From Candidatus Falkowbacteria bacterium RIFOXYD12_FULL_34_57 (GTDB lineage Bacteria; Patescibacteriota; Patescibacteriia; Patescibacteriales; UBA12075), in contig MFGN01000034.1 in the NCBI GenBank assembly GCA_001780285.1, positions 10,462-74,461 on the forward strand: 64,000 bases of DNA, read 5' to 3'. The notes under the pieces were generated by a model. That model was not told the origin of the DNA, did not search any database, and saw only the letters and a program-made list of their open reading frames with translations. Of this stretch, positions 3,754 to 61,089 are shown one piece after another; position 1 is the stretch's first letter, and each line of letters begins with the position of its first letter. A program made the translations under genes and the position numbers.

Positions 3754-5046
3754 TTAGGCTTGTTTTGCAGCCAAAACTTCTTTCCGCCGAGCAACTCGGG
3801 CAGAAACACTCTTGCCGTTTTCATGCACTTCATAGTCGCTTCCCCTTTTTACGGCAAAAAGGTTATCAGCAACCCTGGAGACATCAACACCATGGGCATA
3901 AAGAGGTAGTAAAACCGCCTCTTTGCCCCCGTCAAAAACAAACCATGCTTTCTGAAAGGATTCCGGTGCATCGGTTTTGGTTTCAACCTTGGAGTCGGTG
4001 CTCTCGTCGGCAGTAATAATCCTGGCATCGGTTTTGGTTTCAGTTTTTGCTTCAACCAGTTCATAGCTGATGTCTTCAACGACCAGCTTGCCTTTCTGCT
4101 GGTAAATCTTTTTGACATCACCGTCAATAAGGACGAACATGTGGCTTCTGCCGCTTCGTCTGGCATCGGCGGCCAACATGCCGGCCTCATCTCTGTCAAC
4201 CGGAATTGCTCTCATAACCTTGTCAAAACCGACAAAGGTAAAATTTACTGCTTTGCGCCGGAAAATCTCGGCAACTCTGGATTTTTTGGCATTTTCCCTG
4301 AGCTTGGCCGCTTTCAGGGCTTCATCGTTTTCTTGCCTGATCTGCTCAGGGGTTTTTGCAGCCATTGTGGTCATTGTGGTCTTAGCTTCTCTCATTTTAT
4401 CCATGCGGTCGGCAACGGCTTTGACCAGCATCCGGAATCTTCCCGGAGCCAGGTAAGCGTCAGCGATACGTTTGGCAACCTCATGGGGTTTCAGATCCAG
4501 ATCACGGGAAGTCACTCCCTCTTTGGCCATTTTTTCATAACCGGCAAAAATTTCACTTCCAATCTCTCCCAGACGAACCTTAATGGCCGCCATGCAGGTT
4601 TTCCAGTTGATGCCAAGGGCATTAGACATGTCGCCGGCAACAGCTTTCAGATCTGCTTCTTCACCGTAATTTTCAACGATGAAAATCTGAGATGCGGTGC
4701 CGTGGGCATTGCAGAAATTCCTAGCGCTTTTTACGGCCGCAATAATCAGCGACCGTTTATAGGTGGGGAATTCATTGGCCAGACTAACTTCCGGCATCTT
4801 TTCTCCGTTTTTCAAAGCTTCCTGCACTCTATCGCGCAGAGCTTCCCATTCTTTGCCTTCCAGTTTTTCCACGACTCGCAGTTCTTCGGCGCGCATGCCG
4901 TCGAAAACTGCGACCATTTTTTCCGTGTAATAATCCCGGGTGGCCTTGGTGATCTTGGAACGACCATCAAGGTTGATCTGAGCAGCGATCTCTTTAAGGG
5001 TAGTTACATTCATGGCATCAAGTTCATGTTTGGTGTAAAGTTTCAT
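3754..5046 (-). CDS. Hypothetical protein, N-terminal SAP/HeH-like helix-hairpin, GC-rich
   Basis: 430-aa ORF. The N-terminus TTLKEIAAQINLDGRSKITKATRDYY resembles SAP/Rho-N type motifs, and a TKTDA motif recurs near the C-terminus (ETKTDA twice). It has SD GAAAGGA, its own promoter and its own terminator. Confidence 0.8.
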   Translation of the reverse strand: MKLYTKHELDAMNVTTLKEIAAQINLDGRSKITKATRDYYTEKMVAVFDGMRAEELRVVEKLEGKEWEALRDRVQEALKNGEKMPEVSLANEFPTYKRSLIIAAVKSARNFCNAHGTASQIFIVENYGEEADLKAVAGDMSNALGINWKTCMAAIKVRLGEIGSEIFAGYEKMAKEGVTSRDLDLKPHEVAKRIADAYLAPGRFRMLVKAVADRMDKMREAKTTMTTMAAKTPEQIRQENDEALKAAKLRENAKKSRVAEIFRRKAVNFTFVGFDKVMRAIPVDRDEAGMLAADARRSGRSHMFVLIDGDVKKIYQQKGKLVVEDISYELVEAKTETKTDARIITADESTDSKVETKTDAPESFQKAWFVFDGGKEAVLLPLYAHGVDVSRVADNLFAVKRGSDYEVHENGKSVSARVARRKEVLAAKQA

Positions 5047-20627: not shown

Positions 20628-21785
20628 TTATCTTCTCCCCGTTTTCTCTCCTTTTGTCTGCCGACTAATATTCACCAAAATTCCGCAGGCGGTTAGCGCC
20701 GCTAAAATTGCCGATCCGCCATAACTCACCAAGGGCAGCGGCACTCCGGTCATGGGCATGGCATTAATGATGCCGCCGATATTAATTAGGGCTTGCATCA
20801 CTATCCAGCTGGATATCCCAATGGCCAAAATACGCCCAAAATCATCAGGCGCATTTTTTGCAATTTTGTATCCGCAATAAAATAAATATAAAAATAATAT
20901 AATAAATATTACGCTCACCACAAATCCGGTTTCTTCCGCAATAATTGCAAAAATAGAGTCTCCCGACACCTCCGGTAAATACATATATTTTTGGCGGCTG
21001 GCACCCAAACCCCTGCCCAGTACTCCGCCGGAACCAACAGCAATTAAGGATTGGTTAATTTGATAACAGGCATCGGCGGCATCAAAAGATGGGTCTATCA
21101 TGCATTTAAACCTATTAAGCTGATACGGCTTGAATTGTACCATTACCCCGAAACTTAACACGCCAAAAAGCAATATTAATAAAATGTGTTTTATTTTTCC
21201 CCCGCCCACAAAATATACTATTAAAGAAGTAATAGCAATAATAGACAGGGTTCCCATGTCGGGCTGTTTAAGCATTAAAAAGGCGATCGCGCCCAAAACA
21301 ACAATAAAGGGTCCAATCCCCTTCTCTATTTCCCCCAAATCTTTTTTGCGCGCCTCAAGCCAAGCCGCCAAATACAATAAAAAGGACAATTTCACGAATT
21401 CAGACGGCTGAACCGAATAACCAAAAACATTAATCCAGCTTCGCGCCTTCCCGTAATGCGCGCTAAGCCCCGGTATAAAAACAAGGAGTAGCAAGACAAT
21501 GGAAAAAAATAAAAAACCAAAAGCATATTCTTTCCAGATATGGTAATCAATCCGTGAAAATATCGCAAAAGCGATTAAGCCCAAAGCTAAACCGAATAGT
21601 TGGTGTTTGAAATAATAGTATGGATCGCCGAATTTATCATAAGCAATTACTGATGAAGCGCTGGAAAGACTAATAAGACCAAAGGTTAAAATAGTAAAAA
21701 TAACAACAATTAACTTTTTATCAGGTTCATGAAACCCTCGATAACTATTAAGTAAATTTTTAATTTTTCTTTTAAGATTAGACAT
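20628..21785 (-). CDS. ftsW: SEDS-family peptidoglycan polymerase FtsW/RodA
   Basis: 385 aa, about 10 TM helices, YLPEVSGDSIFAIIAEETGF motif, located in the dcw cluster. Confidence 0.85.
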   Translation of the reverse strand: MSNLKRKIKNLLNSYRGFHEPDKKLIVVIFTILTFGLISLSSASSVIAYDKFGDPYYYFKHQLFGLALGLIAFAIFSRIDYHIWKEYAFGFLFFSIVLLLLVFIPGLSAHYGKARSWINVFGYSVQPSEFVKLSFLLYLAAWLEARKKDLGEIEKGIGPFIVVLGAIAFLMLKQPDMGTLSIIAITSLIVYFVGGGKIKHILLILLFGVLSFGVMVQFKPYQLNRFKCMIDPSFDAADACYQINQSLIAVGSGGVLGRGLGASRQKYMYLPEVSGDSIFAIIAEETGFVVSVIFIILFLYLFYCGYKIAKNAPDDFGRILAIGISSWIVMQALINIGGIINAMPMTGVPLPLVSYGGSAILAALTACGILVNISRQTKGEKTGRR

Positions 21786-21794
21786 GAATATTTA

Positions 21795-21901
21795 GTCAAA
21801 AGTTTAGAAAGTCCATAAAGTCAAAAGCTTGGAATCGCTACGCGATATTTTATTTAATATCGCGTAGCGATTCCAGACTTTATAGACTTTCGACTTTTGA
21901 C
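21795..21901. repeat. Long palindromic intergenic element, family 1 core (GGAATCGCTACGCGATATT and its exact complement)
   Basis: The left arm GTCAAAAGTTTAGAAAGTCCATAAAGTC...GGAATCGCTACGCGATATT pairs with AATATCGCGTAGCGATTCC...GACTTTCGACTTTTGAC. It fills the ftsW-mraY spacer. Confidence 0.8.
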
Positions 21902-21907
21902 TTTCAA

Positions 21908-22960
21908 CTATAGTGTATGATCCAATAAAAACAATATAATGCCAATGGCGGCGGTAATTCCGGCTACAATCCAAAAGCGCATAACAATTTTTGCCTCTGG
22001 CCAGCCGCGCGCCTCAAAATGATGGTGAATCGGCGCTGATAAAAATACTTTTTTGCCGCCGCGAAACCTCTTTGATAAAAGCTGAATAATAACAGATGCT
22101 GCTTCTAATACGAACAAGAATCCGATAATTGGCAAAAGCAGAGCATAATTAGTGAGCATAGCAATAATTCCAAGTGTTACACCAAGACTCATCGCGCCGG
22201 TATCACCCATATAGAAACGGGCGGGTATAACATTGAACCATAGAAATGCAATTAGAGCGCCGATAATCACTCCGCAAAACACAGCCAAATCATATCTGCC
22301 CATCATAAAAGCTATAACCCCGTAAGCTCCGTAAGAAACCAGCAATGTTCCACCGGCCAGACCGTCAAGGCCGTCAATCTCATTTACGGAAAAAGCGGTT
22401 CCCACAATCACAAGAATAAAAAACGGAATATACCACCACCCTATTTCAAAATTTCCCAAAAATGGAATGTGCAGAACCGTCCAATCCAGTTTGAAGTAAA
22501 ACCAAAACGCACCAACACCCGCAATAACCGTATAAATAAGTATGCGATGAATCATATTGAGTCCGCCGCCGCCAAACACACCCTTTTTTCGGACATCAAG
22601 CCAATCATCAAGTAATCCCACCAGGGCTGTCGCCACCAATGCCCCAAGTGGCAAGAGAGTTTGGCTTCGAGATAAAAAATTTAAATTTTTAAATATATCT
22701 ATTGGAAAAAATTTTGCTAAATAAAAAAAGAATGCTGCGAACATGAGAACCGTACCCCAAACAAGCACTCCGCCCATAGTAGGCGTGCCGGTCTTGTGCA
22801 AATGCATCTTAGAAAAAAGGGGCGTGGTTCCGCTATTTCTAATGTTTTTACCTAATTTATATTTATATAAAAAATGAGTAAGCAGGGGCGTCCAGGAAAA
22901 TGTAAACAAAAAAGCGAATGTCGCAAAAAAGAGGACTTTTATAACATAAAAATCTTGCAT
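21908..22960 (-). CDS. mraY: Phospho-N-acetylmuramoyl-pentapeptide transferase
   Basis: Motifs NEIDGLDGLAGG, GDTGAMSLG and PIHHHFE; 350 aa. Confidence 0.9.
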   Translation of the reverse strand: MQDFYVIKVLFFATFAFLFTFSWTPLLTHFLYKYKLGKNIRNSGTTPLFSKMHLHKTGTPTMGGVLVWGTVLMFAAFFFYLAKFFPIDIFKNLNFLSRSQTLLPLGALVATALVGLLDDWLDVRKKGVFGGGGLNMIHRILIYTVIAGVGAFWFYFKLDWTVLHIPFLGNFEIGWWYIPFFILVIVGTAFSVNEIDGLDGLAGGTLLVSYGAYGVIAFMMGRYDLAVFCGVIIGALIAFLWFNVIPARFYMGDTGAMSLGVTLGIIAMLTNYALLLPIIGFLFVLEAASVIIQLLSKRFRGGKKVFLSAPIHHHFEARGWPEAKIVMRFWIVAGITAAIGIILFLLDHTL

Positions 22961-22965
22961 AAAAA

Positions 22966-23073
22966 TTTATAGTCGAAAATCAAAAGTTGAAAGTCGAAAG
23001 TTTGGCACTATACCTACTATGGGAGGGGCTCCAGAATTTTAACTTTATAGACTTTACAAACTTTTGACCATAG
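22966..23073. repeat. AT-rich palindromic intergenic element (AAAGTY-word arms, divergent core)
   Basis: The arms are TTTATAGTCGAAAATCAAAAGTTGAAAGTCGAAAGTTT and TTTTAACTTTATAGACTTTACAAACTTTTGACCATAG. The central loop is GGCACTATACCTACTATGGGAGGGGCTCC. Confidence 0.6.
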
Positions 23074-23894: not shown

Positions 23895-24017
23895 TTATTT
23901 ATCTCCTTAAAAAATTCACCCCAACTTGCGCAATGCAAGGCGGGGTGTTTTTATTTACTATTGAAAAATTTTCAAAATGTTATATGATATTATTATACGA
24001 AGTATAATAATATCCAA

Positions 24018-24125
24018 TCAAAAGTTAAAAGTTCTTAAAGTTAAAAGCCTGGAATCGCTTCGCGATATATTAAATGCCACGAAGTGGCATCAATGACTTT
24101 CAACTTTCGACTTTTAACTTTAAAC
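24018..24125. repeat. Palindromic intergenic element, family 1 core plus a second small hairpin
   Basis: The arms are TCAAAAGTTAAAAGTTCTTAAAGTTAAAAGCC and GACTTTCAACTTTCGACTTTTAACTTTAAAC. The cores are GGAATCGCTTCGCGATAT (24051-24068) and TGCCACGAAGTGGCA. Confidence 0.75.
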
Positions 24126-24146
24126 TAGTCATTGCTTCACAATGAC

Positions 24147-24219
24147 GCCCCTTTAGCTCAATTGGTAGAGCAACGGTATCGTAAACCGTAGGTTGTCAGT
24201 TCAATTCTGATGAGGGGCT
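24147..24219 (+). tRNA. tRNA-Thr (anticodon CGU)
   Basis: Cloverleaf read by hand: acceptor GCCCCTT/GAGGGGC, D arm GCTC-AATTGGTA-GAGC, anticodon arm ACGGT-ATCGTAA-ACCGT, T arm GTCAG-TTCAATT-CTGAT. No CCA is encoded. Confidence 0.9.
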
Positions 24220-46403: not shown

Positions 46404-47840
46404 CTATTCCACCTTTCTCTTCTTTAAAACAGCTAATGGCGTTCTAAGTAATATTGTTAAATCAAGTATCAACGACCAATTTTCTATGTAATATGTATCA
46501 AGCTTAACTTCTTCTTCAAATGTTAAATCGCTTCTTCCAGAAATCTGCGCCAACCCCGTAATACCTGGTTTGATAGTTAAAACTTTTTTATGATGACTTT
46601 CATATTTAGCAGTCTCCAATGTCATATGCGGACGAGGACCGACAAGGCTAATATCTCCCTTTAAAACATTAAATAATTGGGGTAGCTCATCAATGCTCCA
46701 CCTGCGGATAAATCTGCCGAATCTAGTAATACGCGGATCATCTTTTATCTTGTGTAGTGGGTCATCCTTTCTGGTATTAGCGCTTTTGTCAGCCGATAAT
46801 TGCTCCAACATCTTATTTCCCTCTCTGGTGGCGCTTGGTCCTTCCCCGTCGCACAAATGCGCACTCATTGAACGAAACTTATAAAATAAAAATCTTTTAT
46901 TGTGTTGTCCAGATCGATAATCCAAATAAAAAATAGACCCTCTTGAATCTAATTTTATTATTATGGCCGTAATCAGCAAAATCGGGATCAAAACGATAAT
47001 CAAAACTACAGAACTTACAATATCAAAGAATCTTTTTATAATCCTTCCCCATCCATCCAAGGGTGTTTTTTTTACCTCAACTATGGGAATTCCTATTATT
47101 TGCAACACCTCTGTCTTTAATACCTTGGTGTCTAGTAAATCTGCCGCGTACTTGAATGTTAAATGATTTTCATCGGCAAAATCAAAAAGGCGAAGATTTT
47201 CAGCCCTGCTTAAATTGGGGTCGCTCTGAATCACTTCATCCGCCTCCTTATTTTTCAAAAACTCACCAAGTTCATTCGCTGAATCAATGCCGAAATCTCT
47301 AAATCTTTTAACAACTTCATATCCGGCGTTTTTATTGTAGGAAAATTCATGGATCAGGGCGTCTGCCGTCCTACTATCTCCCACTAGAACTATTTTATGC
47401 ACGCCGATACCCATTTTAAATAAACTCCTTTGTACCACCCTTACTATTCCCCTAGCTAAATTAATATAAATAATAGCAAGCACCCATCCGGCCAAAACAA
47501 TAAAGCGGGAATCAAATAGTTCTCGGCTAATAAATATCCAAACTACAATAAGCATGAATCCGGCGGAACAAGCTAAGCTAACGCGATATATTTCGCTGAC
47601 AAATTTTCTTGCCCCCCTGATATTATAAAGTCCGGCAAAAGCAAAGATAATAATCCACAAAAGGGCAATGAGCAACAGCGCCTTCGTGTAACCCGCAAAC
47701 CGCAAATCAAAAGTAACCGGTCGAAGCTTTTGAAAAAAATCAGCATAACGGATAGAATATGCTGTAATTCCGGCTAAGATAATCATTAAATAATCTACCG
47801 GCAATAATAAAAATGAAAAAAATAACTCACTGCGTTTCAT
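46404..47840 (-). CDS. Polyprenyl-phosphate sugar-1-phosphate transferase (WbaP/bacterial sugar transferase family)
   Basis: N-terminal TM helices and a C-terminal KRFFDIVSSVVLI...FYKFRSM...DELPQLFNVLKGDISLVGPRP. I place the start at the ATG (complement of 47838-47840). Confidence 0.8.
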   Translation of the reverse strand: MKRSELFFSFLLLPVDYLMIILAGITAYSIRYADFFQKLRPVTFDLRFAGYTKALLLIALLWIIIFAFAGLYNIRGARKFVSEIYRVSLACSAGFMLIVVWIFISRELFDSRFIVLAGWVLAIIYINLARGIVRVVQRSLFKMGIGVHKIVLVGDSRTADALIHEFSYNKNAGYEVVKRFRDFGIDSANELGEFLKNKEADEVIQSDPNLSRAENLRLFDFADENHLTFKYAADLLDTKVLKTEVLQIIGIPIVEVKKTPLDGWGRIIKRFFDIVSSVVLIIVLIPILLITAIIIKLDSRGSIFYLDYRSGQHNKRFLFYKFRSMSAHLCDGEGPSATREGNKMLEQLSADKSANTRKDDPLHKIKDDPRITRFGRFIRRWSIDELPQLFNVLKGDISLVGPRPHMTLETAKYESHHKKVLTIKPGITGLAQISGRSDLTFEEEVKLDTYYIENWSLILDLTILLRTPLAVLKKRKVE

Positions 47841-47854
47841 GATGTGTGTGCACA

Positions 47855-47997
47855 CTAGTTAAAAGTTGAAAGTTTATAAAGTCTAAAGTCTGTAATCGCT
47901 ACGCGATATTTTAATCAATTGCCGCGCTGTGCCCGCCGAATTGAAGAGAAGCGGCATCCACAACTTTCGACTTTTAACTTTATAAACTTTACACTAG
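47855..47997. repeat. Palindromic intergenic element, family 1 core plus a second hairpin; its right arm doubles as the left inverted repeat of rnpB
   Basis: The arms are CTAGTTAAAAGTTGAAAGTTTATAAAGTCTAAAGTC and CAACTTTCGACTTTTAACTTTATAAACTTTACACTAG. The core is TGTAATCGCTACGCGATATT (47891-47910), followed by TGCCGC...GCGGCA. Confidence 0.7.
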
Positions 47998-48020
47998 ACA
48001 TAGCTTCGCTATGTCCTTTA

Positions 48021-48411
48021 ATATCAAGGCAAGCTATAAGCCGGATTCTGTATCCCTTGCGGAACGATAGTTATTTATCTTGGCTTGGTGTTGCCGCCAA
48101 GCTCATGCGAACCACTTTTCATCACCCCTTGAAAGAGATGGTTTGTTCTTGCTCCAGGCAGGGTTTACCACGAACTGTTGTCGCCAACAGCCGAGAATTG
48201 TAGCCTTTCATCTCGAGAACGAAAAACCTCAATTCACTTTTCACCTTTGGCCAGCACAATGCACTGGTTAGTATAGTCTCTGCGGCACTTTCCCTAAGAT
48301 TGCTCTTGGTGGGCGTTACCCACTACCACTTTGTTAATAAAAATTAACAGGAGTCCGGACTTTCCTCTTCTAATCTAAAAATTAAAAGCAACTATCCGCT
48401 TACCTTGATAT
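48021..48411 (-). ncRNA. rnpB: RNase P RNA (bacterial type)
   Basis: The minus strand contains the universally conserved GAGGAAAGTCCGGACTCC. P1 forms between ATATCAAGGTAAGC (5' end) and GCTTGCCTTGATAT (3' end), with the 3' motif ACAGAATCCGGCTTAT. The ends are approximate to within a few nt. Confidence 0.9.
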
Positions 48412-48434
48412 TAATAGACGTAAATTAATTATAT

Positions 48435-48576
48435 CTAGTGTAAAGTTTATAAAGTCGAAAGTCATCCGCTCGAGGCGGATCAGCCAAAAAATTAATTAGA
48501 TATTAGACGGCTGAAAAGTTTGGAAAAATTTCTTTTTTTATCTCATAAACTTTCAACTTTATAAACTTTCAAATTT
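48435..48576. repeat. Palindromic intergenic element, family 2 core; its left arm doubles as the right inverted repeat of rnpB
   Basis: The arms are CTAGTGTAAAGTTTATAAAGTCGAAAGTC and CATAAACTTTCAACTTTATAAACTTTCAAATTT. The core is GTCATCCGCTCGAGGCGGATCAGCC (48461-48485). Confidence 0.7.
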
Positions 48577-48763
48577 TTACTGGCCGATAGGGCTATAATA
48601 ACATAATCCCATCTTAAAAGTCAATTAAATTTCATAAACAAAGAATAAGATAGAATTAACATAAAAATATTTTTTTGTCAATAATTTTTTAAAAAATAAA
48701 AAAATAAAAAAATTTACTAAATTTTTTATTTTAAATTAGCTAAAAAATTAACAAGCAAAAGAC

Positions 48764-48792
48764 TTGACAAGTTTTTAAAAATATGATATATT
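48764..48792 (+). promoter_or_regulatory. Consensus promoter with no downstream ORF
   Basis: TTGACA (48764-48769), a 17-nt spacer ending in TGa, then TATATT (48787-48792). Confidence 0.6.
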
Positions 48793-48798
48793 AATATA

Positions 48799-49092
48799 AT
48801 ATCATATAGCGGGGGCGATGGGTCGATTATTCGGCTCACTCGCCCCCGAATAAAAAAACTCAAGATCTTCTCCTCTTTAGAATAGATAAACAAAGTCTAA
48901 ACAACAAACAGAAGATTTTACATATCAAATTAATTTGCTTTAGAAGCAACTAAAAAAGCTATTCCAATTTCCCTAGGAGTAGCTTTTTGGTTCTAGCCCG
49001 CCGACAGTCAAGAATTCTAAGTCGAACTAAAGAATGATTCAAAAAATATTCAAAATAAAAAAGACAGCTTGTTTCAAACTGTCTTTTTTATT
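48799..49092 (+). ncRNA. Candidate ~295-nt non-coding RNA (class unknown)
   Basis: The unit is bounded by the 48764 promoter and a bidirectional terminator (AGACAG 49062-49067 / CTGTCT 49079-49084, then a T run). It begins with a 37-nt GC-rich hairpin GGGGGCGA...TCGCCCCC (48811-48847) and contains no credible ORF. Confidence 0.35.
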
Positions 49093-49154
49093 ATTTTATT
49101 TGCTCTTTCTTATCGGATAAACCACATCGGCACATCCTCTTCCTTATTGATTAT

Positions 49155-50378
49155 TTACCCTTGATTTTTCCGCCATAAAAACCGTCTTATGGCTTTCCAG
49201 GATTCCCTGGGACCGGTGGTAATTTTAGATTGGTCCCCTGTTTGAAGGGCTTCCAGCCATTCTTGTACAAGAGCTTTATCTCCCCCTCCGTGAAAATCAG
49301 ACCCATCCGGATTTATATTGATTCTAAATACTTCTTCCCCCAAAAAATCCGTGAGAATAATTTCATTGGTGTTCATGTTTCCGCGAAGAACCATTTCACT
49401 TCCCTGAATAATAATTTCCCGACCGCCGATATTGAATCCGCTCATGGTAAAACCGGCTGTTACGCCGCCTTCATATTCCAGATTTACAACCTGATGATCA
49501 ACTACATTGTTATCACATTCATAAACACATCGCCCATAGGGTCCGGTTTCTATAGCCTTTATCAAATTATCTTCGTTAATATCATTGGTGAGAATGGTTA
49601 AAGGCCAACGCCGCCACCCCCTATCAAAGTGATCGCGCATATAAATCTTCAATGCCGAATAAACACACTTCGGCTCATGTGCGCAATTAATACATCTTTT
49701 AGCTTCTCCGGCCTTTTTTGGTTTTCTTTCCCTGTGAAAATGCAACAAAGAACCGAAAGAATGCACTTTTTTGCATTTCTTGCCAACCAAAAAACGCAAT
49801 ATATCAATATCATGGCAGGATTTAGCCAGAAGCATTGAAGATGTTTTATTCGTATTATTCCAGTTCCCGCGGACATAAGAATGTGCCATATGCCAATAAC
49901 CGACATTTTCAAAATGCTGGATATGAATCAGGTCGCCAATAATCTTTTTTTCATGAATCAGTTCATGCAATTTTTTAAAAAACTTCGTATACCGCAGCAC
50001 ATGGCAAACGGTGAGCATCACATTATTTTTTTCTGCTGCTTCTACGATCTTTTTACATTCTTCCAGTGTCGGAGCCATGGGCTTTTCCAAAAGAATATGA
50101 TATCCTAGATCAGCACAGGCAATTGCCGGCTCGGTATGCATATTGTCCTGCGTAGCAATAACCACTGCATCCACATTTCTTTTTTTCTTTATAAAATCTT
50201 TCCAGTCTTTAAAAATCATATCCTTCTCAATATTCGGAAACAGCTGTAAAACTTTCTTAATCCGATCTTTATTTGGATCAACCACGCCGACAACTATCTC
50301 ATCCTGACCACAAACCAATATCTCTTCCGCGTATCCCAACCCTCTACTTCCAATGCCGATAATCACTATTTTTTTCAT
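49155..50378 (-). CDS. Gfo/Idh/MocA-family NAD(P)-dependent oxidoreductase
   Basis: N-terminal Rossmann fold MKKIVIIGIGSRGLGY and an EKP motif (LLEKPMA); 407 aa. Confidence 0.75.
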   Translation of the reverse strand: MKKIVIIGIGSRGLGYAEEILVCGQDEIVVGVVDPNKDRIKKVLQLFPNIEKDMIFKDWKDFIKKKRNVDAVVIATQDNMHTEPAIACADLGYHILLEKPMAPTLEECKKIVEAAEKNNVMLTVCHVLRYTKFFKKLHELIHEKKIIGDLIHIQHFENVGYWHMAHSYVRGNWNNTNKTSSMLLAKSCHDIDILRFLVGKKCKKVHSFGSLLHFHRERKPKKAGEAKRCINCAHEPKCVYSALKIYMRDHFDRGWRRWPLTILTNDINEDNLIKAIETGPYGRCVYECDNNVVDHQVVNLEYEGGVTAGFTMSGFNIGGREIIIQGSEMVLRGNMNTNEIILTDFLGEEVFRININPDGSDFHGGGDKALVQEWLEALQTGDQSKITTGPRESWKAIRRFLWRKNQG

Positions 50379-58605: not shown

Positions 58606-60936
58606 TCAATCCTCTTTATAATTGAATATTGGACCAATTGCCATAATTTTCTTTTCTCCTTGTTTGTATATCAATGAGACAAACTGAACACCGTTTATGC
58701 TTTCTGTTATTTTCTTTCTTTCGGATTCAATAGTGAAACTTTTATCAGACCTCTCTTTTACAAAATACAATTTAGCAAAATCCACAATAAAATCCTTGTC
58801 ATTTGTATCAAGTTCTTGATTGGATAATTCTTTTATTATAATTCCTTTTATTTTTTTTAAAGTATCATTAAGTTCTTTTAGCTGGACAGAAATAATATTT
58901 GTCTTTTTAGTAATTTGCAAGGCAAAAAACATTTTTAAAAGCATTTCATTTTTGGCAATTAACTCATCAACTAGTTCCAAGTTGGGTTCAATAAAATTAT
59001 AAGAGTTGTCTACCGCATTAACACCAAAACTAGAAGCTGTTTTTTCTTCAAAATAATTAACAAGTTTATCTTGTTGAAGATGCAGGCTAACCCAAGAACC
59101 CAAAATGGTATTCATGTCTTTTTTGTTTTTCCATGACTGATTATTTATGAAAACCGGCTGTCCCAATCTATCATAAGATAAGATGGATTTTGCAATATCA
59201 AGCGTTGACCAATAAATATTATTATTCCATGTATACACATCAAAATCATTTGTTAAATTTCTTAATTTTTTTAATTCTTGATCATAGTTTTCATAGTTGG
59301 TGTTTAACAAGTAGTATTTATCTACGAGCCCAGAAACATCCGGATGAATCAGATTTATAACATCCATGCCAAAACCAACACAACGAAAAGTTGTTTGATA
59401 ATATTTTTTACTTGCGCAAGAAGTTATAAGTTTTTCATCTTTGATGAGAGAATTTACTATCTTTATTTCATCTCCGGTTAAAGATTTAAAAATATAGTCA
59501 TTTGGCCAATATGAATCTTGAAACATTTTCATGCCCAATTTTGGCCTTTCGTTTTTATTATTCCTGTCAAATCCTCCTTCTAATTTTGAGAAATAGAATT
59601 CAAAAATATTTTTTTGCAGCTTAGCCAAGTCTTCTTCTCTGTTTTTATTATTTGGTGAAAAAATTTCTTCAATGGAATAATCTTCGCCAAAAACACTTAT
59701 CAGAGATTCGTGATAATGTAGATAGGTTAAATCTTTACGGAGACCGGAAAAAAATGAAACAAATTTATAGATATTGGCCCATTTGCTTTTTATATCATTA
59801 TTATCAGAAACATCACTGGCGATAAAACTGGCCGCCACCATGTTTATTATCCAATCATCATGATCAATCAAACAATTCTCGCAATCATTATTTCGATAAT
59901 ATAACGGAAAAACAGAATTAAGCCATTTTAAGGTTAAATAAAAATTATTTAATTTAGCATTTTCCCTGTAGTCATTTGGCACCTTAAATTGGTCATAATT
60001 TCTAAAATATAAAAAAATTGGTGATTTATGCTCACCGTCAGATTTATAAATTAAATCAACTTCTTTATAAACATCGTTTTGCAAATAATCAGGCATTAAA
60101 AAACTAAAATTCTCCGCATCCTGCATACTAAACTTATTTTCATCAACCAAATTCGGCTTATCGTTTATTTGTGCACTCTTTGGCTTGAGCAAATTAAGCG
60201 CCACAGCATAATATGCCATCTCCATTCGAATTCCTTCTAGGATCGGATCGTTGGCGATACCAACATCGTTTTGTCTTTTTTTGTATCTAGTTAGGGCTAT
60301 ATCAAATAATTTCTTATTTATTTCCCACAAATTGTCATAAAAAACATTTTTCTCAATTTCCTTGAACACTTGATTCAAATTATTTTGATTATAGTAAATC
60401 AGAAAATCAGTTGTAAGCACAAGCGGTATTTCATTTTTTAATAATTCCTTGTATGCGCCATAAAAATCACTTGTACCAAACAACGGTTCTTTTATTATGG
60501 CAAAGCCATCCTTATTAAAATCCTCAATATATGGATCTAGATTTATTTTTCTGGAAACATCATGATAATTGGCTACATCCACTTTAACATTAATCGGTAA
60601 GCTATATGTACTTTTGTTGGGTTGGAAGTCGTTTTTTATCTTTTGATAAAAATGTCCAAATGTTAAATATTCTGCTTCTATATCCGTAGTGGTTCCAAAT
60701 TCTGAAAAATCACCATTATTATTTCCATTACCCTCTGGCAGTCTTCCTGTTTCTGTTGTACTGGCGGTATTTACTGGTGTTTTTAGGGGCGCCACTGGTT
60801 TGTTGAAAAATTTAATAATAAAAAAAGCGCCAACTATACAGATAGCTAATAGAATTAAAATTGATGAGGTGATAAATTTGTTTGGCTCCTGTTTGTCTAT
60901 CCCAGGCTCCTTTTTCCATTCTTGATCTATAAACAT
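58606..60936 (-). CDS. Large N-terminally anchored exported protein, hypothetical
   Basis: 776 aa with one TM helice (ILILLAICIVGAFFIIKF) and an N/K/Y-rich extracytoplasmic body. I cannot confirm a family (possibly DUF3160-like). Confidence 0.7.
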   Translation of the reverse strand: MFIDQEWKKEPGIDKQEPNKFITSSILILLAICIVGAFFIIKFFNKPVAPLKTPVNTASTTETGRLPEGNGNNNGDFSEFGTTTDIEAEYLTFGHFYQKIKNDFQPNKSTYSLPINVKVDVANYHDVSRKINLDPYIEDFNKDGFAIIKEPLFGTSDFYGAYKELLKNEIPLVLTTDFLIYYNQNNLNQVFKEIEKNVFYDNLWEINKKLFDIALTRYKKRQNDVGIANDPILEGIRMEMAYYAVALNLLKPKSAQINDKPNLVDENKFSMQDAENFSFLMPDYLQNDVYKEVDLIYKSDGEHKSPIFLYFRNYDQFKVPNDYRENAKLNNFYLTLKWLNSVFPLYYRNNDCENCLIDHDDWIINMVAASFIASDVSDNNDIKSKWANIYKFVSFFSGLRKDLTYLHYHESLISVFGEDYSIEEIFSPNNKNREEDLAKLQKNIFEFYFSKLEGGFDRNNKNERPKLGMKMFQDSYWPNDYIFKSLTGDEIKIVNSLIKDEKLITSCASKKYYQTTFRCVGFGMDVINLIHPDVSGLVDKYYLLNTNYENYDQELKKLRNLTNDFDVYTWNNNIYWSTLDIAKSILSYDRLGQPVFINNQSWKNKKDMNTILGSWVSLHLQQDKLVNYFEEKTASSFGVNAVDNSYNFIEPNLELVDELIAKNEMLLKMFFALQITKKTNIISVQLKELNDTLKKIKGIIIKELSNQELDTNDKDFIVDFAKLYFVKERSDKSFTIESERKKITESINGVQFVSLIYKQGEKKIMAIGPIFNYKED

Positions 60937-60944
60937 GGAAATTA

Positions 60945-61089
60945 GTTAAGGTTTATAAAATAAAAGTTAAAAGTCTGAAATCGCTTACGCGATAATATGA
61001 TAAAAATTTATAAACCTAAAAGTTAATTAAAATATTGTCGCAAAGCAACCCAATTACTTTTAACTTTATAAACTTTACGAATTTTCAAC
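60945..61089. repeat. Palindromic intergenic element, family 1 core
   Basis: The arms are GTTAAGGTTTATAAAATAAAAGTTAAAAGTC and ACTTTTAACTTTATAAACTTTACGAATTTTCAAC. The core is CTGAAATCGCTTACGCGATAAT (60975-60995). Confidence 0.7.

Follow-up and report, generated by a model that had tools for sequence, protein, structure and literature searches.

The rnpB locus and its bracketing repeats

A 64-kb stretch of DNA (hereafter the window) from an organism placed as a Candidatus Falkowbacteria-like CPR member carries on its minus strand a gene for RNase P RNA, rnpB, followed by a sugar-transferase gene (Table 1). The rnpB gene matches RF00010 over the full length of the model (positions 1 to 367; 209.1 bits, E value of 2.4e-66, gathering score of 100), and an earlier reading of the same DNA from its letters (the sequence-only reading), which had put the gene at 48021 to 48411 on the basis of its P1 helix, came close to the Rfam boundaries. 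CPR RNase P RNAs are known to be divergent (PMC8172020). The order of the two genes is widely kept: rnpB lies directly upstream of the sugar-transferase gene in ~78 of 80 species or loci, with a spacing down to 16 nt, and the upstream neighbor, a GFO/IDH/MocA gene, is syntenic in no relative. The orientation of rnpB relative to the transferase gene is the same in ~78 relatives, which rules out an assembly inversion between the inverted repeats described below.

Two elements, E5 and E4, flank rnpB. E5 is composed of an AAAGT array, GC hairpins (ATCCGC..GCGGAT and CAGCC..GGCTG), and an ACTTT array, and its own arms are 95% complementary over 21 nt; E4 has an inner hairpin, AATCGC-TAC-GCGAT, and own arms that are 85% complementary over 27 nt. 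Only rnpB passes when Rfam 15 models are run against positions 47800 to 49200; E4 and E5 have no match, the other matches lie outside both elements and far under their gathering scores, and a hairpin at 48811 to 48850 matches no known RNA family.

The inner arms of the two elements form a bracket around rnpB. The sequence-only reading had described two 21-mers as exact reverse complements; sequence comparison bears this out, and the perfect match in fact spans 22 nt. Beyond these 22 nt, an indel or bulge of one 7-nt unit (TTTTAAC) is followed by a second perfect block of 12 nt. The sequence-only reading was likewise correct to note that both repeats double as arms of adjoining palindromic elements, E4 and E5 each having arms of their own. 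Complementarity of the rnpB flanks greatly exceeds chance for this locus (duplex z = -9.9 versus shuffled flanks), and the window holds no further match to the bracket 21-mers with 3 or fewer mismatches (0 expected in shuffles). A chance origin is ruled out by the shuffled flanks, the expectation for 21-mer matches, and the counts of the family's core 14-mer.

The space between bracket and gene is partly taken up by P1, which runs past the Rfam ends with AUAU/AUAU and 8 more pairs, including one A-A mismatch, to ~48419/48013. Between this extension and the bracket lie a loop of 16 nt (5' side) and a small hairpin (3' side); the hairpin lacks a U-run on the rnpB strand and opens in the global minimum-energy fold. 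Symmetrical spacers of 23 nt had been reported between the repeats and the gene, and the distance of ~23 nt holds, but the spacers are not neutral, since the P1 extension reaches into them. In relatives, P1 extends beyond the Rfam ends by a median of 12.5 bp, with covariation, versus only 8 bp kept here, and the 3' strand has been replaced.

Table 1. Features of the rnpB locus and other copies of the repeat family in the window (strand "." where none applies)
Feature	Position	Strand	Remarks
Family copy E1	21793..21913	.	9 nt upstream of the ATG of minus-strand gene 20628-21785
Family copy E2	22970..23073	.	11 nt upstream of the ATG of minus-strand gene 21908-22960
Family copy E3	24015..24129	.	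17 nt upstream of tRNA gene 24147-24219 (+)
Polyprenyl glycosylphosphotransferase gene (Bac_transf)	46404..47840	-	Pfam PF02397; downstream neighbor of rnpB
Element E4, ~145 nt	47855..47999	.	Between rnpB and the sugar-transferase start codon
Second bracket block, downstream side	47963..47974	-	12 nt; partner of 48451-48462; 7-nt unit indel on one strand
Downstream bracket arm (E4R)	47977..47998	-	Inner arm of E4; AAAGT-type in RNA sense
Small hairpin GACAUAGC-GAA-GCUAUGUC	47997..48015	-	Between P1 extension and downstream arm
P1 extension, 3' strand	48013..48024	-	Pairs with 48408-48419
rnpB, bacterial type A RNase P RNA	48021..48407	-	RF00010, Rfam boundaries
P1 extension, 5' strand	48408..48419	-	AUAU + 8 nt; pairs with 48013-48024, one A-A mismatch
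Element E5, ~150 nt	48433..48583	.	Between rnpB promoter and rnpB
Upstream bracket arm (E5L)	48434..48455	-	Inner, gene-proximal arm of E5; ACTTT-type in RNA sense
Second bracket block, upstream side	48451..48462	-	12 nt; 100% complementary to 47963-47974
Predicted sigma-70-type promoter TTGACT-18-(TGt)TATTAT	48595..48624	-	Orthologue of the clade's rnpB promoter
Family copy E6	60943..61089	.	7 nt upstream of the ATG of minus-strand gene 58606-60936

A dispersed AAAGT/ACTTT repeat family

E4 and E5 are members of a repeat family with six copies (array pairs) of 104 to 151 nt in the window, every one of them 7 to 27 nt 5' of a gene or RNA gene. The core 14-mer of the family occurs 20 times in the window versus 3.1 expected. 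Each element is built from an array of AAAGT units, one or two small GC hairpins, and an array of ACTTT units, with units of 7 to 9 nt, and the ends follow the pattern TA/GT(Y)(R)AAAGT...ACTTT(Y)(R)AC/TA. ACTTT arrays end 10 to 19 nt before start codons without a Shine-Dalgarno sequence far more commonly than chance would allow, and they also precede the tRNA gene and rnpB. Unit arrays occur singly as well, and in many unrelated contigs; one array-bearing metagenome contig is assigned to Patescibacteria, and some others we take to be Bacteroidota from their GroEL and Obg sequences. In another genome, L108, nearly every gap of a cluster of ribosomal-protein genes and rpoA runs from a stop codon through an AAAGT array, a small hairpin, an ACTTT array, and ~13 nt to the next ATG. 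Nearly every ribosomal-protein gene there is bracketed by such arrays, whose units measure 9 nt on the 3' side and a mixture of 7 and 9 nt on the 5' side.

Inside this family, the complementarity of the bracket is not exceptional. E4R has exact blocks of 23 nt in common with E6R, 13 kb away, and of 22 nt with E3R, 24 kb away, and its 22-nt exact match with E5L is no longer than these. The notion of a processing architecture specific to rnpB is therefore not borne out: the bracket arms are ordinary arms of a repeat that precedes six genes in the window. By whole-element comparison, E4 is no closer to E5 than to E3 and E1. Identity between E4 and E5 sits mostly in the inner arms (34 of 34 positions, with one unit indel), the outer arms are 88% complementary, and the centers are unrelated. 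The unrelated centers and the equal nearness of E4 to E3 and E1 rule out that the two elements as a whole are recent inverted duplicates.

When all 36 arm pairs are compared in a duplex matrix, the best two are arms that face each other across a gene, namely, E5L/E4R (-40.2 kcal/mol) and E2L/E1R (-35.6 kcal/mol), and arms within one element are no more complementary than average or than arms of different elements. This ranking of facing arms is unexpected from independent insertions and counts against an origin of the bracket as a by-product of them; selection for pairing is one possible cause, gene conversion another. Across 26 paired elements, there is no sign that a hairpin on the sense strand is selected, as would be visible from a G-U bias: the sense strand gives the more stable fold in 11 elements, and the antisense strand does so in 15. 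An RNA hairpin under selection on the sense strand was rejected accordingly.

How does this family compare with known dispersed repeats? The REP/BIME and ERIC elements of enterobacteria are short to medium imperfect palindromes, present in many copies in intergenic spaces, including those within operons, and transcribed into mRNA. The family described here likewise consists of multicopy imperfect palindromes in intergenic spaces; in contrast, its sequence and unit-array build are unrelated, its distance of 10 to 19 nt from the downstream start codon is tight, and it has no G-U strand bias. Correia elements (CREE/nemis) of Neisseria are dispersed and intergenic, have inverted-repeat ends, and often adjoin genes and are cotranscribed with them (PMC2649163). 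The likeness here extends to length (~100 to 150 bp), inverted-repeat ends, proximity to genes, site polymorphism (seen at the E4 site in relative L082), and TA-flanked termini, which are found at 8 of 12 arm ends, where the TA may belong to the repeat itself and the relatives are too diverged to define an empty-site junction. Unlike Correia elements, the arms are arrays of 7- to 9-nt AAAGT/ACTTT units that are often not strictly complementary, and these arrays also occur singly and in unrelated contigs. As in MITEs and Correia-like elements generally, copies of ~100 to 150 bp with terminal inverted repeats are dispersed and vary in presence at orthologous sites (E4 and E5 are absent at the rnpB of relatives), but the two ends are not inverted copies of each other, either in the arms of E1 to E6 or in the L108 arrays. 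The CTAG ends and TA flanks would make a classic MITE with a putative TA duplication an attractive reading, which loses weight because the two arms do not mirror each other as inverted copies.

A further likeness concerns translation. The "epsilon" translational enhancer of phage T7 gene 10 reads UUAACUUUAA (PMC9590205). ACTTT arrays contain TTAACTTTA just upstream of start codons without a Shine-Dalgarno sequence, a resemblance in sequence; unlike in T7, the motif comes in 3 to 10 iterations, is in most cases matched by an inverted partner array, and stands before RNA genes too. Literature searches on CPR repeats, MITEs in Patescibacteria, and the motif string returned nothing relevant, and the AAAGT/ACTTT family seems to be undescribed and to be a more interesting lead than the bracket. 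Its distinctive build and placement may report on the organization of gene expression in the CPR, whose promoters, mRNA ends, and translation signals are, to our knowledge, almost unstudied.

The rnpB transcription unit and its relatives

The promoter upstream of E5 fits the consensus at 10 of 12 positions and carries the TG extension, with a predicted start near 48588. On a matrix made from 46 relatives, its score is 21.8 bits; a score of 20 bits is reached at no more than 2 positions of the whole window. This clade promoter is kept in ~50 of 57 relatives at 20 to 42 nt from rnpB. The distance from promoter to rnpB is 183 nt here versus a mode of 31 nt in the relatives, and the gap between rnpB and the ATG of the transferase gene is 180 nt versus a median of 60 nt in 74 relatives. 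By sequence comparison, E5 is an insertion between the conserved promoter and rnpB, and E4 is one between rnpB and the transferase gene. To find a dispersed repeat separating an essential ribozyme gene from its strongly conserved promoter is unusual in the case of rnpB, and as a consequence of the E5 insertion this lineage must process or tolerate a leader of ~170 nt. The sequence-only reading had placed the only promoter-like sites of the minus strand upstream of the right-hand element, and the only site near rnpB that matches the clade promoter does lie there; the upstream bracket arm very probably lies inside the predicted rnpB transcript.

It is quite improbable, in our estimate, that rnpB is instead transcribed from a start between E5 and the gene or at the inner end of E5, whether from a promoter activity of the ACTTT array itself or from the TATAAT at 48433 to 48428, in which case the bracket would exist in DNA only. 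The position of ACTTT arrays 10 to 19 nt upstream of start codons, the tRNA gene, and rnpB would suit an outward-firing promoter, and the ends of Correia elements reportedly give rise to promoters (PMC2649163). GACTTT, the array unit, is similar to the -35 block of the clade, TTGACTTTTT, and the TATAAT is a perfect -10 motif that precedes the 5' end of the Rfam match by 20 nt and so falls within the -10 range of relatives; it has no -35 or TG partner, however, and lines up with the AT-rich sequence that forms the 5' strand of the P1 extension in relatives such as L083. A MAFFT alignment put the relatives' promoters onto the inner arm of E5, which we read as an artifact of avoiding a 150-nt gap. 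Against the internal start, the consensus scan found no minus-strand promoter in 48408 to 48470, and the best candidate between repeat and gene, ATGACT-17-TACACT, reaches 0.1 bits on the clade matrix versus 21.8 for the upstream promoter. Manual inspection gave no array register with proper -35/-10 spacing, so a sigma-70 promoter was rejected both in the arrays and at the TATAAT, and in L108 the clusters whose gaps hold the elements are of a kind usually organized as operons.

Prediction gives no terminator-like site for the minus strand downstream of rnpB, and the tails of relatives are not U-rich; an intrinsic terminator was rejected there on these grounds. The tight linkage of rnpB and the transferase gene implies read-through, and the two genes are probably cotranscribed. 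The conservation of this linkage suggests that the 5' end of the glycosyl-phosphotransferase mRNA would be made by maturation of RNase P RNA. Since E5 follows the promoter and E4 follows rnpB, a long precursor that contains both arms, as the sequence-only reading had proposed, is plausible.

Comparison of the rnpB flanks in related genomes had been named beforehand as the test that could refute a functional bracket, and the repeats are absent in the relatives. No distant bracket occurs among the 57 relatives with usable flanks (of ~78 that share the rnpB locus), and their longest flank complementarity is the P1 extension, 0 to 5 nt from the ends of rnpB. AAAGT/ACTTT arrays next to rnpB are absent in all relatives except L009. 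L082, the closest relative in which the 3' flank could be read and one with an 86% identical transferase, has an empty site 3' of rnpB; the closest genome with an element at the site equivalent to that of E4 is L081, in which the contig breaks inside the element after one end. With relatives that share this rnpB lacking the bracket, its reading as a conserved function fails.

Precursor folding and the origin of the bracket

Folded in silico, the predicted precursor prefers the long-range bracket, at -249.4 kcal/mol versus -225.2 kcal/mol for the sum of local folds, a gain of ~24 kcal/mol. The bracket helix has 22 perfect pairs, or 27 with G-U pairs, plus the 12-bp block, in agreement with the earlier proposal of a 21-bp helix that encloses the whole RNase P RNA. 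The alternative pairings it had foreseen are available as well, with local folds of -41.1 kcal/mol for E5 and -45.0 kcal/mol for E4. The thermodynamic preference for the long-range bracket and the concentration of E4/E5 identity in the inner arms both count against a by-product origin.

RNase III processing stems flank 16S and 23S rRNA in bacterial rRNA operons. Like these, the rnpB flanks can pair over ~20 bp or more, mostly without mismatch, and so enclose a whole stable RNA. The geometry of such stems, invoked by the sequence-only reading, stands insofar as the helix is long enough for RNase III; unlike rRNA stems, which are conserved and covary, it shows neither conservation nor covariation in related genomes, is absent in relatives, and is made of the generic arms of a dispersed repeat. 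We consider it unlikely that the arms were co-opted from the repeats and pair in a long minus-strand precursor as a functional RNase III-type stem that releases RNase P RNA. The long and nearly perfect helix, its energetic advantage, and the rank of the facing arms as the most complementary pair in the window would all suit such a stem, as would the conserved promoter upstream of E5, by which the 5' arm is probably transcribed, the lack of a predicted terminator before the tightly linked transferase gene, and a 150-nt leader insertion that needs some 5' processing anyway. Weighing against it are the absence of the bracket in every relative with usable flanks, L082 included, the ordinary family character of the arms, and the lack of a sense-strand G-U bias in paired elements (11 versus 15). 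Timing adds to this: E5 would be transcribed first, and its own 24-bp hairpin could form ~430 nt before the long-range partner exists, so local hairpins should be kinetically favored. An RNase III signature was found neither in the window nor in the other loci examined, which is uninformative for 64 kb of a genome, and literature on rnpB with RNase III and inverted repeats gave nothing relevant.

That the bracket helix is kept in the mature RNA, in place of the distal part of the long P1 lost in this lineage, is highly improbable. The relatives' covarying extension (median of 12.5 bp) is reduced here to 8 bp with a replaced 3' strand, and the bracket stacks outward from the shortened P1 in the minimum-energy fold. 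Yet a 16-nt loop and a hairpin separate bracket and P1, what is left of E5 and E4 would need to be either retained in the mature RNA or cut away from it, and the idea is pure inference, with nothing similar in any relative.

Most likely, the bracket is no dedicated processing signal; it probably arose as a by-product when members of one dispersed intergenic repeat family inserted twice into the rnpB transcription unit. Family elements stand immediately 5' of genes, E5 before rnpB and E4 before the sugar transferase, and because each stands 5' of its own gene, E5 turns its ACTTT arm and E4 its AAAGT arm toward rnpB, so that the two face each other across it. Their perfect complementarity would follow from the long near-consensus blocks that family arms have in common. 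Both insertions would lie directly beyond the end of a long ancestral P1, which exceeded the Rfam model by ~13 bp, and this position would account for the symmetrical spacing of ~23 nt. Transcription from the promoter would read through E5, rnpB, and E4 into the transferase gene, and the precursor would contain duplexes of ~20 to 27 bp, either as two local hairpins or as the more stable long-range bracket. The cell would need either to tolerate such duplexes or to remove them, for which RNase III and trimming are plausible means, and it is possible that RNase III makes use of the bracket. For RNase P, the result is mostly deflationary, with no evidence for a conserved rRNA-like stem around rnpB.

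A bolder generalization, to which we give little credence, is that AAAGT/ACTTT arrays act as a genome-wide "gene punctuation" in some CPR and possibly in other bacteria without Shine-Dalgarno sequences. Each transcription unit would then begin, at the 5' end, with an ACUUU array and finish, at the 3' end, with a complementary AAAGU array; by pairing across the gene or with a neighboring unit, these arrays would create either protective panhandles or cleavage sites for RNase III. One and the same kind of bracket would serve to mature mRNAs, tRNA, and RNase P RNA alike from long precursors, and rnpB would be the clearest instance of an undescribed general mechanism.

Repeats at rnpB have precedents. 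Tandem repeats lie 3' of E. coli rnpB, and STRR (short tandemly repeated repetitive) heptamers sit inside helix P12 of cyanobacterial rnpB; we know of no description of either as complementary arms that enclose the whole RNA. Among the relatives, L006, L010, and L008 have unrelated palindromic insertions in the rnpB leader or trailer, and L084 has repeat insertions inside rnpB. As in E. coli and cyanobacteria, these rnpB loci tolerate genome-wide repeats in their flanks or variable helices.

The inverted repeat at rnpB and its family in the window

The window encodes a full-length type A bacterial RNase P RNA (Rfam, 209 bits), and the sequence-only reading had placed this gene between two complementary 21-mers, proposed to form an RNase III-type processing stem like that of rRNAs. 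The two 21-mers are indeed exact reverse complements and are unique in the window at ≤3 mismatches (0 expected from shuffles). The perfect match is 22 nt long (47977-47998 versus 48434-48455); beyond an indel of a single 7-nt unit of the repeat, perfect complementarity resumes for 12 nt (47963-47974 versus 48451-48462). The duplex of the two 120-nt rnpB flanks has a z score of -9.9 compared to shuffled flanks. The arrangement is probably best explained by two copies of a dispersed, gene-5' repeat inserted just outside a long ancestral P1 helix: one copy would have entered the rnpB leader, and the other the spacer before a probably cotranscribed transferase gene. Complementarity is general among arms of the family and would account for that of the facing pair.

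The core AAAGTTTATAAAGT occurs 20 times in the window at ≤2 mismatches, versus 3.1 expected. Defining an element as a cluster of AAAGT units followed within ~100 nt by a cluster of ACTTT units yields six elements, E1 to E6 (left and right arms, L and R), whose units of 7 to 9 nt are set around small hairpins; an inner hairpin, AATCGC-TWC-GCGAT, is common to four of the six. All six lie directly 5' of a gene and are oriented as that gene: E1, E2, E4, and E6 are 7 to 15 nt upstream of the ATG of minus-strand genes, a tRNA gene lies 17 nt downstream of E3, and 27 nt separate E5 from the Rfam 5' end of rnpB. Since each element precedes its gene, the bracket consists of the gene-proximal arm of E5, before rnpB, and the distal arm of E4, before the next gene. 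Long exact matches between arms are ordinary within the family, E4R sharing 23 nt with E6R (13 kb off), 22 nt with E3R (24 kb off), and 22 nt with E5L. Over whole elements, the similarity of E4 to E5 is no higher than that of E4 to E3 or E1, and the centers of E4 and E5 are unrelated. There are no Rfam models for these elements, and a literature search found no published description of them. Their closest analogues are Correia/REP-type intergenic repeats, which are cotranscribed and cleavable by RNase III (PMC2649163), and the closest analogue of the geometry is the rRNA processing stem.

Coordinates of the repeat elements and of features at the rnpB locus
Feature	Position	Strand	Description
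E1	21793-21913		Array pair
E2	22970-23073		Array pair
E3	24015-24129		Array pair
E4	47855-47999		Array pair
E5	48433-48583		Array pair
E6	60943-61089		Array pair
Facing arms E1R/E2L	21874-21913 / 22970-23009		Enclose ORF 21908-22960
Facing arms E4R/E5L	47960-47999 / 48433-48472		Enclose rnpB
P1 extension strands	48408-48419 / 48013-48024	minus	Pairing beyond Rfam ends
rnpB	48021-48407	minus	RNase P RNA
Transferase gene	46404-47840	minus	Bac_transf sugar transferase (polyprenyl glycosylphosphotransferase)

The rnpB locus in related genomes

The transferase gene neighboring rnpB led to 80 related loci (species representatives with 47 to 73% amino acid identity, labeled Candidatus Falkowbacteria, Parcubacteria, or Patescibacteria). 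In ~78 of these 80 Falkowbacteria-like loci, nhmmer places rnpB immediately 5' of the transferase gene and in the same orientation. AAAGT/ACTTT arrays beside rnpB are absent from all of them except L009, whose rnpB-to-ATG spacer contains a short one. None of the 57 loci with usable flanks has flank complementarity of >14 nt; the longer complementary stretches lie 0 to 5 nt from the rnpB ends and therefore represent P1 extension. In the closest relatives available, from a Logan assembly (transferase 86 to 87% identical), L082 has an rnpB-to-ATG spacer of only 50 nt, AT-rich, which is an empty site, and in L081 the site equivalent to E4 is occupied by the end of an element (GACTTTTAACTAGTG), within which the contig breaks off. 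L083 and L084 (76 to 77% identical) are without such elements. The repeats are thus missing from related genomes with the same rnpB, which argues against a conserved bracket. Contigs of the closest relatives end within or beside the rnpB and element region (L081, 1-62; L082, 1; L083, 1), suggesting that repeats or strain variation break short-read assemblies there. Unrelated palindromic or unit-array insertions are found in the rnpB leader or the rnpB-transferase spacer of other species, such as a hairpin of ~25 bp in the L006 leader (~4480-4680), TTAACCA/CAATTGA unit arrays in L008 (~2800-2900), and an insertion in the rnpB flank of L010 (~700-780), so rnpB flanks repeatedly accept such elements. 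Many records with this type of locus are titled "uncultured Gammaproteobacteria" or "Nanoarchaeia archaeon" (L008, L010, L016, L057, and others), which are probably wrong bin labels.

P1 in the window continues past the Rfam ends with AUAU/AUAU and 8 further pairs, including one A-A mismatch, to ~48419/48013. Across the clade, P1 is ~12 to 15 bp longer than the Rfam model; the median extension is 12.5 bp in 48 relatives with well-defined ends, compared to 6 when the 3' side is shifted by 7 nt as a control, and covariation is obvious (e.g., TTTATATTCAGCCG/CGGCGGAATATAAA and TAAAACCTAG/GTAGGTTTTA). The window extension is a reduced version of this feature, with only 8 bp kept. Both repeats are positioned just outside the former end of the ancestral long P1, an adjacency that would account for their symmetrical spacing. 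The 23-nt spacers noted earlier are partly filled by the P1 extension, as P1 does not end at the Rfam ends. Divergence with extended helices is already known for RNase P RNAs of the candidate phyla radiation (CPR) (PMC8172020). The rnpB length ranges from ~374 to ~736 nt among the relatives, and L084 rnpB contains four tandem repeats of ~30 nt near P3 (GCGCGGCTCCACTTAACGTGGATGATTCGC...) and, further on, a 120-nt AT-rich palindromic insertion (L084 5150-5320 and 5420-5545 for the two features), all of which fits the helix extensions reported for CPR (PMC8172020).

A promoter of the form TTGACT-17-TAnnnT, ending 20 to 42 nt (mode, 31) 5' of rnpB, is present in ~50 of 57 relatives. Its window counterpart, TTGACT-18-TGtTATTAT (48624-48595), is 183 nt from rnpB, an excess that matches the E5 length. 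Under a position weight matrix from 46 relatives (consensus, TTGACTTTTT...TGnTAnnAT; training range, 10.5 to 31 bits), this site scores 21.8 bits, only two positions in the whole window reaching ≥20 bits, and within or past E5 no candidate exceeds the 0.1 bits of ATGACT-17-TACACT. In a MAFFT alignment, the inner arm of E5 is matched with the promoters of the relatives, which we read as long-gap avoidance aided by the likeness of GACTTT to TTGACTTTT. In the window, 180 nt separate rnpB from the ATG of the transferase gene, versus a median of 60 in 74 relatives (minimum, 16; interquartile range, 30 to 101). With the promoter displaced by about the length of E5 and the ATG spacing enlarged, both elements are insertions in the transcription unit of rnpB. 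On the minus strand, nothing resembling a terminator is predicted 3' of rnpB, and the relatives' rnpB tails show no U-richness. Because spacings go down to 16 to 30 nt, cotranscription of the transferase gene with rnpB would be the simplest reading, and this linkage suggests an mRNA 5' end formed by 3' maturation of RNase P RNA. The putative long precursor proposed earlier thus draws its support from comparison among relatives. Of the sigma-70-like sites in the region, the best is TTGACA-17-TATATT with TG (11/12), within 48764-48850 (+). It is followed after ~20 nt by a GC-rich hairpin, GCGGGGGCGA...TCGCCCCCG, and an A-run rather than a U-run; the surrounding gap is AT-rich and devoid of ORFs, and there is no significant Rfam match.

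Arrays in other genomes

Scanning metagenome contigs with AAAGTTTATAAAGTYNAAAGT returned at least 120 loci, whose matches are arrays of the AAAGT/ACTTT-type unit: some paired around a small hairpin, some single, and some in long tandem runs (single or tandem, e.g., L116, L180, L191, and L199). Among the matches listed, one array-carrying contig is assignable, to Patescibacteria; some others may be Bacteroidota, judging by the GroEL and Obg proteins that they encode. In the contig L108 (594 kb, 31% G+C), elements fill nearly all intergenic regions of the infA, rpmJ, rpsM, rpsK, rpsD, rpoA, rplQ, rplM, rpsI cluster, each laid out as stop codon, AAAGT array, A5-stem-loop-T5 hairpin, A6, ACTTT array, ~13 nt, and ATG. 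Each L108 gene is therefore "bracketed" by an ACTTT array before and an AAAGT array behind it, so the rnpB geometry is generic.

Among the matches listed and the window, the spacing between the last ACTTT and a following ATG (ORFs of ≥80 codons) has a sharp peak: it is 10 to 19 nt for 49 of 244 arrays, compared to 4 of 1,025 random positions (e.g., L090, L091, L102, L112, L172, L189, L192, and L201, in the range L085 to L204, and E1, E2, and E4). In the same set, a start follows within 40 nt for 38 of 154 single arrays in the ACTTT orientation versus 15 of 154 in the opposite one. The 40 nt 5' of these starts are almost G-free and contain no Shine-Dalgarno sequence. The ACTTT arrays contain the "epsilon" enhancer motif of T7 gene 10, TTAACTTTA (PMC9590205), a resemblance only.

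Arm complementarity and predicted folding

A simple hairpin or MITE is disfavored as the nature of the element: arm complementarity is no higher within an element than between elements, the two sides differ in unit length in L108, and a sense-strand G-U bias is absent. In the 6 × 6 matrix of duplex energies, the top two of 36 arm pairs are E5L/E4R (-40.2), around rnpB, and E2L/E1R (-35.6), around an ORF; the outer arms of these two pairs rank fifth and sixth, and within-element pairs do not exceed the average. With three gene-enclosing pairs among the 36, two of them would occupy the top two ranks by chance with a probability of ~0.005, a post hoc figure. These ranks speak for a bracket functional around rnpB, which we nevertheless consider unlikely, and for a broader role of AAAGT/ACTTT arrays as gene punctuation, which seems slightly less likely still. 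In L108, a facing-arm effect is not clearly shown. Possible causes of the excess are gene conversion involving inverted repeats that lie close together, selection favoring cross-gene pairing, and chance.

For the 748-nt minus-strand RNA (48592-47845), the predicted minimum free energy is -249.4 kcal/mol (z = -12.4). The predicted fold is nested: pairing of the outer arms E5R/E4L comes first, then 27 bp between the inner arms E5L/E4R, and inside these the extended P1 with the RNase P core. When E5 (-41.1), the middle segment (-139.1), and E4 (-45.0) are folded separately, the energies sum to -225.2 kcal/mol, so the bracket is thermodynamically favored in silico; kinetically, E5 could form its own 24-bp hairpin ~430 nt ahead of the synthesis of its long-range partner. 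A long precursor with a foldable enclosing helix of 22 to 27 bp is plausible, but a conserved, rnpB-specific, rRNA-like stem is unsupported. The interest for rnpB is moderate to low, and the better lead is the repeat family together with the rnpB-transferase linkage. A search of the 64-kb window and the retrieved loci turned up no RNase III signature. RNase III needs duplexes of at least 20 bp, and both the local and the bracket conformations are predicted to offer duplexes of that size.
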